Assembly (NCBI RefSeq): GCF_003918875.1
Contig: NW_025767635.1
Coordinates: 1,426,001-1,490,000 of the forward strand
Direction: 5' to 3'
DNA: 64,000 nt
Source: Haliotis rubra
Taxonomy: Eukaryota
Part shown: piece after piece, positions 1-4,932 of the stretch
Layout of the letters: the number at the start of each line of letters is the position of its first letter
Numbering within the stretch: position 1 is the stretch's first letter
Position numbers and translations under genes: made by a program
The notes under the pieces: generated by a model
What the model saw: only the letters and a program-made list of their open reading frames with translations
What the model was told of the DNA's origin: nothing
The model's database searches: none

Positions 1-29
1 CCAGGAGGTCCGCTTCCGAGTTACCGTCT

Positions 30-1300
30 GTGCATGCAGTGAGGGAGGAGTGGATCAGAATAAAGGAACTGGAGCGACTTGTTGCTAGATTTGACCATGA
101 ACCATGTATGACCGATGTCTATGCCAATGAGGAGCGTTTACAGGCAGTGACTGCTGCAATATCAGAAATGGAACTAGATGACTACTATGACATTGACACT
201 GATGAAGAGCTGAGACTATGGAATTACCTGCTAGAGCTTCTTCACACTCGTTGCATGAATTTGGAGTTGACACTGAGCCTGCAGAAGATCTTCCAGGAGA
301 TGCTGTGCAACTTGGACTGGATGGAAGGGACCACAGCCTGGCTTACATCTGAGGGTGATGGTTGGCACCTGATGGAGGTGGAGGAGTTGCAGCAGCGACT
401 ATTGGAAGCCTGACATCCATGTAGTGGCAGAGAAGGTGGAAACTGTGAACAGTTCAGCCTCCCGTTTTACTGAAGCGACTTGTGGGACTTCTGTGACCCT
501 GATGTGGGAAAAAGCTAATGCTTATTTTGGGGAATCGGCTTATGATGAACTGAAAAAACTTGTTGAGCAGAGAGCGATCTCGTGTGGAAGAGGATGCAGC
601 TCTACAGGAACATGAAAGATGAGGAAGGATGGATCAGGGAGAAGAAACAACTTATGTCATCACTTGACTTTGGACTTAACCCACCAGTACTTCGCCTGCT
701 GCTGAACAAGCATGACACGATGGAGGAGGAGATGAATGCCCGCCACAGCCATCTCCAGTCAGTACTACAAGTGGGAGACATCCTCGTTGCTGCAGGCAAT
801 TTCTGTGCTGACAAGATTCAGCAACACATCAATGAGGTCAAACAGCAGTGGCGCAGCCTGGTGGACCTAAGCTGATGAAACGAGCTTGAAAGAAAGCGAC
901 TGTTTGTTGCCATGGATTTCCACCCAGTTCGTTGATTCTGGCAAGGTGGCGCCTTGACACTTGGATGAAGGACACTTTACAACTAGGGTCCATGGAAGAC
1001 GTGATTCAAGATGATGAGGCCAGTGTTCAATCAGCTTTGAAGCAGAAACATGGAGGAGGTGACTGAGGAGCTCAAGAGCTATCAGAATGTTATTGTGAAC
1101 CTGCATAAGCAGGCCATCGGTCTGGGAGAGGAGTACTGTGAATGTCATTTGGTCAGGAGTCGATTGAATAATATTGACTATTGTTACCAGAGACTTCTGG
1201 AACTCGCTGAATGGCGGAAGCAGAGACTGGTTAATGCACTGTATCAGTACAAAGTCCTCATTGAGAGTGAAGGTGTGGAAACAATGATTGATGAGAGTGA
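30..1300 (+). pseudogene. Intronless beta-spectrin fragment (about spectrin repeats 1-6), broken by stops, frameshifts and internal deletions
   Basis: ORFs 30..413, 582..875 and 1050..1610 match beta-spectrin as I recall it: LERLVARFD, LRLWNYLLELL...LQKIFQEML..LDWME, EEGWIREKKQLMSS, LLELAEWRKQRLVNALYQYKVLIESEGVETMI. The pieces are collinear and no introns lie between them. Confidence 0.85.
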
Positions 1301-1422
1301 ACACACTCAGGATGATGCAGTCCTGGACCTCGGGGATAATGATGGTTCAGTAGACTTGGATGAGGGGGATGTTGTAGATTTTGAAGAAGTGAGGGAGGGT
1401 TTGACTGTCCCCGAAGTACCCT

Positions 1423-3462
1423 TTGTTCCTGCCCTTGCTACACCTACTACACCAGCAAATATCAAGACTGTTCCTCCGGCAGTCAAATCAACGCGTTCTG
1501 CAGCAGCTAAAGCGACACGATCACCCACCCACCAAAAGTGCTTTGGCAGCAAAGTCACAGGCGACACAGGGAGTTCCTGCTGGGAATGCTACTCGATCAT
1601 CTTCACCTAAAGTAGCGGTATCAGCAAACACAGCAACAGAAAAAGGGAACATTCCTAAGCATCCGGTCACTCTGTTCGACCAAACAGATGATTCTTTTGA
1701 GGTGAGTCTTGATGACACTCAGATGAATGAGATTGTTGCGGACCAGAAGGAGAACGATGGAGAAAGAAAGACTGCTGACAGAGACACCTCAGCAACAACT
1801 GATGAGGTTGTGAGAGGTTGCGGAGAGAATATCAAAGCGAGAACAGGGGGCTTAAGCATGATAGCAGAAGGGGGTCTACCCCCCTGGCCACCAGATGGCG
1901 CCCTAGTGAGCTGTGGTAAGGAGGATGCAGATGGTGTTCTCCTCAGCAACACAGGTCTGAACGTTAAATGTTTGCCGCTGTGGATACCCGACGGTCACAC
2001 CAGGGAGGGTGGTCAATCTCCCGTTTTGGAGATGGGGGCTTCGATAACAGGTAAGGCACGCCTCCAAATGGATGGAGAGACGAACCGGCAGGACGTGCTG
2101 GTGGCACAAATCAGCAATCAGCTCATCCTGGGACTTCACTTAGCCGACAGGCACTGCACAAACATTGATGTGCAACCAGGGACAGTTACCATTGGCGGGT
2201 GTGAGATCCCGGTAACGTTCAGGACCAGAGAGTCTGTTGTATGCCAAGGGGCCATTCCAAGGGCAGTGTCGTGTGGACCGCACACAGCTACCAGACTACC
2301 ATGCCATGACCATGTTGACAGTCAAGAGTTGAACCAATCCCCGGTGGAGCCTGTTTCAGAAACCAGGCGGTGTGCATTAAGTTTGGGGAACCTACATCAA
2401 GGGCAATGCTCTGCTTTGGTGTACTTGATCAACACGGCTGACCCCTTAGTGAAGGTACACAAGGGTCAGCACATTGGCAATGCAGTTGAAGACAGACAGG
2501 GTGAGGAGACCAACAGCGTTATCTGTAGGGCCTCTTCCATTGCGAAGGTAGGGGAGGGTGTCCTACGGAAACTTCCATTGCTAGACATGCCCAACGAGAT
2601 GGACATGTGTATTTTGGACACAGACGGCTCTGGCCTAGCTGTCAGGATTGAGCTACCCTTAGGGCAAGAGAGAGGGGCCAGTTGTGGTCGTTGCTCATTA
2701 ACCCTAGAGCAGCGGGGGTATGGCCAAACTCACAAGAAGATGCTGGTGGATGTTCGCCTTCCAAGACAGTATTGCCACTACCTGTTGGGGCATTATTTTC
2801 TGATGCGGATGGACCACAACAGTTGGAGGTGGTCGCTTAATTTCGAATCGTCTGACAGACAGCTGGCCTGCTGGCCTGAGACACTGAGCCCTTATGACAT
2901 GAAGGTTGAATATCGTCCAGGGACCAAAGAAATGGCCGATGAAGCAGACTGTGACAGCTGCCAGAGGTTGGTTGAGTTACACAAGCTCCCATGCGGGGGC
3001 TGTCAAAATGCTCGCCAACGAGGGGATCAGTTCCACAAGGACGTAGAGTACATCCTTCCATTAGCTGGCCGACCTTGGACAGTCAGGGGGGTAACAGGGG
3101 TGGAAGATAACAGCTACTTGGGAGAGATCCCTACCAGGTGGGACCCCGGTGGGATGAGCAAGAATCAGGCAGAAGATCAGGGGCATTCTCTTGAACAGAG
3201 TGACCCCAAATCCTACCCGGAGAAGATTCACACTGATCCCAAGTGTAGGACAGTTGTGGGATTGCACCCCAGAGTGGGCGCCAATCTGGTTGTGAGGCGT
3301 GCCCGCCTGCCGCTTCGCTCTTTGGCGGGGCGTCCTCTGCGTGGTGGGGCTAGACGACACCGCAGAGGCCAACGAGTGGAGAGGACAGGAAAAAGTTTTG
3401 AGGGAGCTGGCACCGAACATCCCGGCTGGGTGCCCGGTAGTGGTATGGGTTCGTGGGCCTGA
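1423..3462 (+). CDS. Chimeric degenerate Gypsy pol ORF: protease remnant, linker, RNase H and TatD N-terminus; RT and integrase cores absent
   Basis: 679-codon ORF with RNase H at about 2608-2925. No YxDD RT motif and no integrase DDE region. The ORF runs into DPKSYP...GLHP (TatD-like). Confidence 0.65.
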   Translation: MFLPLLHLLHQQISRLFLRQSNQRVLQQLKRHDHPPTKSALAAKSQATQGVPAGNATRSSSPKVAVSANTATEKGNIPKHPVTLFDQTDDSFEVSLDDTQMNEIVADQKENDGERKTADRDTSATTDEVVRGCGENIKARTGGLSMIAEGGLPPWPPDGALVSCGKEDADGVLLSNTGLNVKCLPLWIPDGHTREGGQSPVLEMGASITGKARLQMDGETNRQDVLVAQISNQLILGLHLADRHCTNIDVQPGTVTIGGCEIPVTFRTRESVVCQGAIPRAVSCGPHTATRLPCHDHVDSQELNQSPVEPVSETRRCALSLGNLHQGQCSALVYLINTADPLVKVHKGQHIGNAVEDRQGEETNSVICRASSIAKVGEGVLRKLPLLDMPNEMDMCILDTDGSGLAVRIELPLGQERGASCGRCSLTLEQRGYGQTHKKMLVDVRLPRQYCHYLLGHYFLMRMDHNSWRWSLNFESSDRQLACWPETLSPYDMKVEYRPGTKEMADEADCDSCQRLVELHKLPCGGCQNARQRGDQFHKDVEYILPLAGRPWTVRGVTGVEDNSYLGEIPTRWDPGGMSKNQAEDQGHSLEQSDPKSYPEKIHTDPKCRTVVGLHPRVGANLVVRRARLPLRSLAGRPLRGGARRHRRGQRVERTGKSFEGAGTEHPGWVPGSGMGSWA

Positions 3463-3830
3463 GGGGGATGAGCTGGCTGGATCATCCCACACCCGGGTCA
3501 TCCGGGTGTTGAAGGAATGCCTTCCCCAAGATAAACCCTTGGTAGTCCCCAACTTCACCAGAGAGGAGGGGACGGACCAGGAATGGTTGGAGGGGTTCTC
3601 ACAATCTTGTTTCAGTTTCACCTCCCGGGTGGTGGAATTTCCCCAGGGCCAGATGGTGTGGTTAAGGGCGGTGCCAGAGGATAGGGTGCTGATGGGGACA
3701 GACTGTCCCGACACTGGGCCGGGAAGGTTGCACCCTGAACTCCAGTGTTGCTGTGCTATGTGACGCAAGTGGTAGCAAGAAAGAGGGACTTCTCTTGACC
3801 ACAAACGTCAACGCGGCTCGGCTGTTCACT
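3193..3830 (+). pseudogene. TatD-family (TIM-barrel nuclease)-like domain, frameshifted and with substituted metal ligands
   Basis: TatD-like motifs in order across frames: GLHP; VVGLD (GExGLD); PVVVWVR (PVVxH.R); PNF (HCF); WLEGF; VPEDRVLMGTDCP (IP.DRLLLETDxP); C-terminal TTNVNAARLF at about 3798-3827. Confidence 0.7.
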
Positions 3831-4317
3831 CTGGGGGACGCCGTGGGTCTCATCCAATGGTAGGGTGAGGCTCGTGTAATGCCTAATGTTTTCTGGGCTC
3901 CACCCAAGACGGGGGTGGGGTCTGTGTGCGCCAGTAGCAGCCAGTTGGCCCCACCTAATGGCTAGGTGGGGTTGGATGGCCTTTGGCAGGTCATCAGTGT
4001 CGCTCCGAAGTGGAGTGGGACTTTCCTAGAGACTGTAAAAGACTGCGGGTCTTACTTGATGGTACGAGTGGGACCTGAACCCTATATGATATGGACGATT
4101 GGTCCCACCGAGGATACGGTGGAATCCACACCAGAAAGCCGGAAGCTAGGTGCTTGCGGAATCAGGGTGACTGAGGGGAGGACCCCTTGGTGTGCCGCGC
4201 AGAAAGGATACCCCTCGGGAGACAGTTACGAGAAGACCCCTTGGCTGAGGACGGCATGGTGTACTTCCTATGGAGGGTGTACTTCCTGTGGAGGGGGCCT
4301 TTTAAAACGGGGAGGAA

Positions 4318-4545
4318 TATGGTGATCACCGGTCACCCTTGCTAGAGATGGTGCTAATGACCGGTGTCGGGAGGTAATAGGAACAGCCGGAAAAACAGCG
4401 AGTCTATGCCAGCCATTCTGTGAGTACACAACGCCTTATCTGGGGTCTACCTAAATCCTTAGGTTAGGGCTATATTACCGCAGAGTGCGAGCCATAGCTA
4501 ACTCCATAGGTGTTCCGCCGTAGTGGTGAACTAGTTTTCACTACA
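4318..4545 (+). repeat. Putative 3' LTR of the Gypsy-type element
   Basis: Follows the PPT directly. TATGGTG at the start is a two-mismatch inverted match to the terminal CACTACA. The sequence becomes AT-rich after 4545. The partner LTR is not in the window. Confidence 0.55.
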
Positions 4546-4932
4546 GTACCAAAAATAAAATCAACCTGTGGAACAATGACCAAGACCAACAATAAAACTA
4601 TGATTAAAATCAGTATTTAGTTAAAACAAAAGGATCAAAGCACAAAAGCGATTAATTGAAACCATCACATGTCATTATCAAAGTAGAGTGTCATTTCACA
4701 TATGAGATTTCTAACCTTTCCAAGCAGAAACAAATTCTGAAATATTTTTTCACATCTTGTAGCAGATGGGAGCCCCTCCCGTGTTAAGTCACAAGCCGTT
4801 TTGGGGGAAACGAGCGCGGTGTTGGTTATTGTGTTGCACTTGTCCATCAGTTGTATTCCAGTCGTTTTTCGTTTACCAACAACGTGTATCATTATATTTC
4901 AATACAAACAGTGTGTCATCAAACATACATAC

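Follow-up and report, generated by a model that had tools for sequence, protein, structure and literature searches.

Enzymatic third open reading frames (ORFs) are already known in Gypsy-like elements. The Juno and Vesta long terminal repeat (LTR) retrotransposons of bdelloid rotifers encode a DEDDy-type 3'-5' exonuclease as ORF3, as well as a GDSL esterase (PMC5408684), while certain orchid Gypsy elements carry an ORF for an AlkB m6A demethylase (PMC9289625). A mollusc-wide survey defines Gypsy clades by reverse transcriptase (RT) and RNase H (RH) and names Mag/C-clade, CsRN1, Cigr-1, and MolGy1-16; an extra ORF is not discussed in its available text (PMC6238403). The TatD nucleases form a separate body of knowledge, in which TATDN2 is a class II TatD with an HxH motif (PMC10085689), and human TATDN2 degrades the RNA strand of R-loops and also cuts hairpin RNA (PMC10711561). 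In a 64,000-nucleotide stretch of the abalone Haliotis rubra (contig NW_025767635.1, positions 1,426,001 to 1,490,000; hereafter the window, G000:C2745:1426001-1490000, other C-numbers denoting further contigs of the same genome, G000), an initial annotation had proposed a Gypsy-type element with a TatD-like domain between pol and the 3' LTR. This core idea holds for many copies of a Gypsy lineage and for several hosts. TatD as a third ORF of this kind appears new: no description of TatD within a retrotransposon was found in the literature searched, which left aside Repbase, subscription journals, and supplements, and where TatD is not a recognised retrotransposon domain. The word "TatD" is absent from the main text of PMC5408684, and the available text of PMC6962438 contains no TatD in an element.

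At least 39 genomic matches were obtained with the TatD remnant of the window as a query and at least 52 with the Pfam TatD family. Sequence context of 8-28 kb was taken for 37 regions, picked mostly by score; 33 of them contain TatD, 27 of which lie outside the family of the window element. Upstream of these 27 and on the same strand, integrase (IN) is present at 17 loci and gag/protease (PR) only at four; the remaining six show neither, some of them having less than 8 kb of upstream context. Nine loci are complete (gag, PR, RT, RH, IN, and TatD) between LTR pairs 92-100% alike and represent at least three LTR families. Their layout is LTR-gag-pol(PR-RT-RH-IN-PHD)-ORF3-PPT-LTR, where PPT is the polypurine tract and the C-terminus of pol is a PHD finger (Pfam E 3.6e-9; present in C2270 and in L201, a contig from a second host). 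Paired LTRs, the PPT, a short target-site duplication (TSD; 4 bp in 12 of the 16 elements examined), and the order PR-RT-RH-IN in the complete relatives and L201 identify them as Ty3/Gypsy elements. The gag of C2270 and L201 starts with a helix-hairpin-helix-like motif, recognised by reading the sequence and without a Pfam match.

TatD forms the end of a separate third ORF, following a low-complexity N-terminus and a C2H2 zinc-finger plus helical domain. In full-length relatives it matches PF01026 with E 1e-31 to 3e-33 (110-116 bits against a cut-off of 27), and all seven metal-site residues (H, H, E, H, H, E, D) are intact in 9/9 complete elements. The ratio of nonsynonymous to synonymous substitution rates (dN/dS) between intact TatDs is 0.09-0.14 in four of the five finite comparisons and 0.35 for the closest pair, one more comparison being saturated; the TatD of complete elements is under purifying selection. 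A predicted model of the domain has pLDDT >90 over the barrel and matches TatD structures at Z 26-29, with a root-mean-square deviation of 2.5-3.0 Å over ~245 residues. Judging from this conservation, ORF3 of the complete elements very probably encodes an active nuclease, whose activity could be assayed on a single small domain. The zinc-finger/helical domain is predicted with pLDDT 95 and has no Pfam or solved-structure match (Foldseek against PDB and viral structures, E > 0.7; VIA, best Z 3.4; Atlas, < 0.9), which does not amount to a new fold. TatD lies downstream in 26 of the 29 homologues of this domain that have room for one. As far as the available text of the two reports goes, the lineage resembles Juno and Vesta in being Gypsy-like with an extra enzymatic ORF after pol, their 3'-5' exonuclease having intact catalytic residues and an unproven function; it differs in that its ORF3 is a TIM-barrel TatD rather than a DEDDy enzyme, includes the additional zinc-finger/helical domain, spans three phyla, and is under clear purifying selection. 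As in the orchid elements, a Gypsy lineage has here fixed a nucleic-acid enzyme of host origin as an extra ORF; AlkB, however, is a different enzyme, recent and limited to a genus, with its activity shown.

The element TatD has 359 protein matches of 438-1,397 residues, and the hosts named among the best 120 of these include Haliotis, at least eight bivalve genera, Elysia, Lingula, and three sea-urchin genera. The sites E, H, H, E, and D are kept in 113/118 homologues, and all seven in 110/118. The repeated flanking of TatD by Gypsy pol and paired LTRs, for which the initial annotation had suggested a search, is found both in the abalone genome and in the second host's contig (L201; JBEVXV010000655.1, 1-11691, 11.7 kb). 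The latter, whose ORFs are open, comprises an LTR, gag, a 1,425-residue pol (PR, RT, RH, IN, PHD), ORF3-TatD, PPT, and the start of a second LTR, the LTR pair being 99% alike over 94 bases. In the gene model P0122, which matches Lingula P0064 in its C-terminal part, a protease and an integrase piece are fused to ORF3, and a search for longer TatD-bearing proteins yielded three matches, one fused element model and two host TATDN2 proteins. A metagenome scan with a single intact TatD domain found nothing; an alignment-based scan gave at least 80 loci, none with a gag, RT, or IN match, which served only as a bacterial outgroup. L201 itself sits inside a bacterial metagenome-assembled genome (MAG), where its TatD is labelled a Sedimenticola protein; it is probably animal host DNA in a bacterial bin, and several other MAG matches labelled "TatD family hydrolase" may share this explanation. 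One in-frame stop splits the ORF3 of this contig (L201:8209-11442) into an Arg/Ser-rich part and a zinc-finger plus TatD part, which may reflect read-through, a separate start, or splicing. Many genes annotated as "TATDN2-like" or "uncharacterised TatD" in these animal genomes, and as "TatD hydrolase" in symbiont MAGs, are probably element genes.

The origin of the element TatD was addressed with FastTree and with a short LG+G4 search on 46 rows, rooted on E. coli TatD. The tree suggested by the annotation, with TATDN1/2/3 and bacterial TatD, was run with TATDN2 and bacterial TatD, TATDN1 and TATDN3 lying outside the sampling, and the element TatD groups with TATDN2 against the bacterial rows. 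Element TatDs (support 94) form the sister group of animal TATDN2 (99), and the joint branch (99) stands apart from the bacterial TatD, YcfH-like, and YjjV rows; the element TatDs fall beside, not inside, the 12-23 TATDN2 rows. One protein first counted as an element (P0120) grouped within TATDN2 and was reclassified as host. The [FYW]CxP motif occurs in 29/33 element rows, 23/23 TATDN2 rows, and 0/25 bacterial rows, and a TATDN2 profile outscores a bacterial one for 28 of the 33 element TatDs. ORF3 further resembles TATDN2 in its HxH, E, H, H, and E-x-D sites and a long disordered N-terminus; in contrast to TATDN2, the ORF3 TatD is element-borne, intron-less, ~30% identical, and accompanied by the C2H2 and helical domain. 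The abalone has a TATDN2 of its own in a separate gene that contains introns (C1224, identical to P0129); this, together with the sister position, argues for an old capture from the TATDN2 line rather than a recent one from the present host. That TatD is a neutral passenger, a recently acquired piece of host TATDN2 useless to the element, might be suggested by the capture of host mRNA by the same elements (spectrin, below). It is contradicted by the position of the element TatDs outside molluscan TATDN2, in a separate group with members from molluscs, a brachiopod, and urchins, and by conserved ligands with dN/dS mostly ~0.1, and is extremely improbable.

The affinity to TATDN2 suggests a role for ORF3 on RNA-DNA hybrids. 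Working alongside the Gypsy RNase H as an additional nuclease for hybrids, it would strip the RNA strand from R-loops that the GC-rich, G-skewed transcript of the element forms, or remove RNA remaining on the cDNA. Within the window element, GC content and G skew peak in the ORF3 region (58% GC, skew 0.17), which fits R-loop formation and proves nothing. By analogy with the human enzyme, action on the RNA strand of hybrids or R-loops on behalf of the element is a serious possibility, with the balance just short of even. If so, the preservation of an intact hybrid/R-loop nuclease in molluscs, a brachiopod, and sea urchins would point to a step of the Gypsy cycle, or to a host defence, beyond RNase H alone. 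Intact ORF3 might instead be a counter-defence enzyme that destroys stray element cDNA or structured RNA before host sensors or small-RNA pathways meet them, without a role in replication. Such an activity would be in line with the cutting of hairpin RNA by TATDN2 (PMC10711561), with the 3'-5' exonuclease action of other TatDs on single-stranded DNA and the reported degradation of host extracellular traps by parasite TatDs (PMC10085689), and with ORF3 being a separate gene in an accessory slot, unfused to pol. The closest characterised relative is nonetheless an R-loop enzyme of the nucleus. Nucleic-acid binding, for which the Arg/Ser-rich N-terminus and zinc finger are suited, would serve either role, and counter-defence is unlikely.

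The element of the window is a non-autonomous deletion derivative of this old Gypsy lineage, without capsid, RT, and integrase (Table 1). It is 6,347 bases long (~6.35 kb) and starts at G000:C2745:1424199, 1,802 bases ahead of the window; the annotated span of 1423..4545 was right at its 3' end and far too short at the other, where the spectrin piece belongs to the element. The RNase H remnant, PPT, and 3' LTR described around the TatD segment are all present, and the order of the PR and RH remnants is that of Gypsy elements. What had been called pol lacks RT and integrase as well as that half of the protease which bears the catalytic motif, and 3' of the RNase H remnant the integrase, PHD finger, and N-terminal part of ORF3 are deleted. 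A sequence resembling a primer binding site (PBS; TGRCGC...GAACA) follows the 5' LTR.

Table 1. Features of the TatD-bearing element (window positions unless a contig is given)
Feature	Position	Strand	Basis or remark
5' LTR	C2745:1424199-1424426	+	Outside the window; 99.1% identical to the 3' LTR over 230 bases
End of gag N-terminal region	1..109	+	No capsid or zinc knuckle after it; ORF start C2745:1425116, upstream of the window
Intron-less host spectrin piece, in frame within gag	110..1296	+	Pfam Spectrin; alignment to host gene exons
Low-complexity linker and pol N-terminus remnant (GLPPWPPD repeat region)	1297..2025	+	~31% match to pol start of the full-length relative C2270
Protease remnant (C-terminal half, catalytic motif deleted) and linker	2026..2574	+	57% to residues 73-140 of the protease query; RT deleted after it
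RNase H remnant and linker	2575..3201	+	Pfam RT_RNaseH E 5.2e-7; 49% to relative
TatD remnant (~residues 53-271 of the intact domain)	3202..3863	+	Stop 3861-3863; two frameshifts private to the window copy
PPT	4304..4317	+	Sequence; equal position in relatives
3' LTR, 228 bases, TA...CA ends	4318..4545	+	LTR pairing; full-length relatives TG...CA
4-bp TSD, GTAC	4546..4549	+	Same 4 bases precede the 5' LTR

Five further copies of the window element are 93-95% identical to it, with LTR pairs 98-100% alike. Two of them, C2608 and C790, have common flanks and stem from one insertion, so that the window family comprises five independent insertions. C2608, although it sits at the site of C790, resembles a second spectrin-bearing family (see below) at 98.7% over its middle 2.3 kb, which would reflect gene conversion between families or an assembly chimera, and it was excluded from the five-copy alignment for this resemblance. 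No profile match to the gag core (capsid), RT, or IN was obtained in any of the six window-family copies, and the family is thus not an autonomous Gypsy element. In its termini and PPT the family is similar to the main complete family, the likely helper as far as sequence can tell. In five copies with a readable 5' end, the LTRs begin with TA (window 4318-4319), not TG; the TSDs are nonetheless clean 4-bp repeats.

The TatD motifs noted in the window copy are in place and in order: GLHP at 3259-3270 (frame +1), GLD at 3347-3355, PVVVWVR at 3434-3454, and VPEDRVLMGTDCP at 3671-3709 (all frame +2), and NAARLF at 3810-3827, followed by the stop (frame +3). The frame +2 piece matches Pfam TatD_DNase (PF01026) with E 1.1e-5 and 25.3 bits, just below the curated cut-off of 27. 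The frameshifts seen across these motifs exist, as a peculiarity of this single copy. Metal ligands read as V, W, N, and G in place of E, H, H, and E are borne out for W and G. The third is not, its His aligning to P (the N falls on the next Cys). How the first Glu reads varies with the alignment, which places either V or a 3-residue gap there. ETD keeps its Asp, while the N-terminal ~50 residues, including the HxH motif and the first barrel strand, are deleted, and the copy lacks both the full barrel and the metal-site residues of an active TatD. The first Glu is the residue whose loss lowers activity most in human TATDN1 and TATDN3, according to the available text of PMC10085689; with this residue changed or lost, the remnant is very likely inactive.

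The ligand changes are fixed, affecting four of the five remaining metal sites in all six window-family copies. Other highly conserved positions are changed at 10/27, a proportion that does not differ significantly from the ligands (Fisher p = 0.14), and TatD has dN/dS of 0.87-0.95 among these copies, consistent with near-neutral drift; the stem of the window-family TatD in the tree is 0.93, compared with 0.27 for its sister. The initial annotation had raised the possibility of a catalytically dead decoy. This does not fit the lineage, in which 9/9 full-length elements with an LTR pair keep all seven sites and 113/118 homologues keep E, H, H, E, and D. For the window copy, a selected decoy or nucleic-acid-binding pseudo-nuclease could account for the fixation of the ligand changes, for the same E-to-V and E-to-G changes in a relative that still has the zinc-finger domain (C1702), by which ligand loss preceded the deletion, and for the loss of three to six of the seven sites in 8/30 ORF3 homologues that keep most other conserved columns. 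The excess of ligand loss is not significant, neither in the window family nor when pooled over nine degenerate copies, which are not independent since C509 and C1702 are related (p = 0.08; 0.10 when compared with residues whose codon has A in second position). Moreover, the first strand and HxH are gone, dN/dS is ~0.9, and short derivatives often keep TatD simply because it adjoins the PPT. A selected decoy is accordingly ranked as quite improbable for the window copy, below plain decay: its TatD looks like a decayed remnant, likely just carried along. There may have been an earlier pseudo-nuclease phase in the window lineage before the deletion.

Ligand-dead TatD derivatives of ORF3 do appear elsewhere, as read from their sequences. 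Among 30 near-full TatD domains found via the zinc-finger domain, 22 have 0-1 changed sites, eight have 3-6, and none has two. At C2410:436871-438154 (-) (L117), a single-copy, unbroken 447-codon ORF encodes the zinc-finger domain and a TatD with six of the seven metal sites lost, as against 6/30 other conserved positions. No gag/pol match was found in the 17 kb upstream of this ORF, and its product shares 85% identity with P0302, a protein of another data set in which the seven sites show the same pattern. It is a candidate domesticated pseudo-nuclease gene. Further ligand-dead derivatives are P0246, P0272, P0247, P0249, P0303, P0334, and P0361; P0246, whose cluster includes an Ostrea edulis gene, and P0272 have one common pattern of ligand loss, and P0246-P0248 contain two zinc-finger domains each.

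The 5' half of the derivative shows a second capture of host sequence. The Pfam Spectrin match (E 3.6e-18, window 588-869) covers one spectrin repeat, and the whole captured piece corresponds to eight host exons and ~3.5 repeats of what is presumably a beta-type spectrin, going by sequence resemblance. Exon pieces of the host gene (C2245:2119.7-2123.2 kb) are 72-86% identical to the element copy. They are contiguous in the element and separated by gaps of 230-580 bases in the host gene; therefore, the piece was taken from spliced mRNA. Non-autonomous LTR elements carrying spliced host gene fragments are known, e.g., Bs1 of maize. The derivative shares with this type an internally deleted pol, captured spliced exons, an in-frame gag fusion, and intact LTRs, PBS, and PPT; it is distinguished by a frame open through five or six junctions, a drift of ~0.2 substitutions/site, and the dead TatD end. 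The same cassette also occurs in a second non-autonomous family (C641, L081; C1490, L082; C2289, L083), which matches the main complete family in its LTR (97-98%) and gag N-terminus, is devoid of RH and TatD, and in which the cassette rejoins the gag C-terminus in frame.

A frame of ~1,575 codons runs through the gag N-terminus, spectrin, linker, PR, RH, and TatD remnants of the derivative. When the commonest codon is taken over five copies, only the last of 1,576 codon columns is a stop, and the junctions are bridged by unbroken natural ORFs (gag-spectrin in C266, 517 residues; spectrin-PR-RH in C509, 815 residues; RH-TatD in C790/C2608). Compared with the host gene, the spectrin part shows dN 0.15-0.24 and dS 0.36-0.48, with ~37% of residues changed. 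It contains no stops against 9.05 expected over 381 codons (P about 8e-5), an expectation that assumes host exons close to the captured state, and its amino-acid changes match those of a neutral simulation in radicality (P = 0.15). Stops and frameshifts were therefore purged while the residues drifted. This could be explained if a related complete family, its termini being similar, mobilises the derivative in trans, and if the frame of the derivative is kept open mainly to place the first stop near the 3' end, the RNA thereby escaping nonsense-mediated decay. Such trans mobilisation, with the frame open chiefly for this escape and the protein mostly drifting, is reasonably probable. The derivative would then exemplify cleanly how a frame can stay open although most of the encoded protein drifts. 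Nothing relevant on open frames and nonsense-mediated decay in non-autonomous elements was found among the literature matches listed.

Alternatively, the frame might be open because the gag N-terminus (helix-hairpin-helix-like) and spectrin anchor the RNA or the particle at the membrane skeleton or on the helper Gag, the PR, RH, and TatD tails being junk. Among copies, dN/dS does rise from ~0.6 in the gag N-terminal part (p 0.005-0.01) to 0.7-0.8 in spectrin (not significant) and 0.8-0.95 in the downstream remnants (a C641-vs-C509 comparison, in which non-homologous gag parts were mixed, was dropped). New prolines in spectrin number two against 5.9 expected, and the cassette is in frame in the second family (C641, C1490) with another LTR and gag N-terminus. 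A useful chimera is at odds with the extent and neutral-like radicality of the spectrin changes, and it leaves unexplained the open frame through the drifting PR-RH-TatD tail, where ~15 further stops are expected at equal decay time; it is rather unlikely. Individual copies have 4-22 frameshifting indels, nearly all private, with LTR pairs 98-100% alike. Assembly error is a possible cause of the breaks in the window copy. Two of its 13 one-base indels lie within homopolymer runs, and in two other sequencing runs all contigs over several of the breaks show the state of the other copies, contigs being apt to drop rare variants.

Taken together, the best explanation, held with moderate confidence, is that the window element derives from a Gypsy lineage equipped with a TATDN2-type hybrid/R-loop RNase and that its own TatD is a carried remnant. 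Several points weigh against this reading or its parts. The tree has no TATDN1 and TATDN3, comes from a short search, and has long element branches; outside this genome, the linkage to pol is seen in one contig (L201) and one gene model (P0122) and is inferred elsewhere. The substrate is borrowed from human TATDN2, just ~30% identical, and TatD family members act on single-stranded DNA and AP sites too, as stated in the available text of PMC10085689. The helper is only inferred: a complete element with the LTR of the window family was not found in the genome, the best other LTR being 77% alike. The explanation of the open frame leans on the general view that RNA translated to near its 3' end escapes nonsense-mediated decay. 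Frameshifts in young copies, if real and not assembly errors, would mean that an open frame is not needed in each round of copying, and the dN/dS of the gag N-terminal part (~0.6) and the paucity of new prolines indicate that protein-level selection may contribute. A more ambitious reading, conceivable though doubtful, is that of an ancient, previously undescribed marine-invertebrate Gypsy clade with its own TATDN2-like R-loop nuclease and the unmatched zinc-finger domain, whose gene was repeatedly handed to hosts in a dead state, and which is parasitised by the spectrin derivatives with a 1,575-codon ORF kept by selection on frame continuity alone. If true, the spectrin derivatives would offer a naturally occurring test of whether nonsense-mediated decay filters retroelement RNA.

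In two presumed RNA runs, contigs cover window 1-2484 only, end at the junction of the second spectrin family, and do not reach TatD, so that they have no bearing on expression. Short deletion derivatives often retaining TatD are found at C811, C1846, C2486, C1889, and C1891. A deeply diverged TatD (C2067:2141257-2142009 (-), 27% to the main family) lies behind gag and integrase remnants and groups with P0113 and P0115, the former of which also has a NADAR domain. Finally, three exon-like pieces of divergent TatD-like sequence are located at C2481:352-378 kb.

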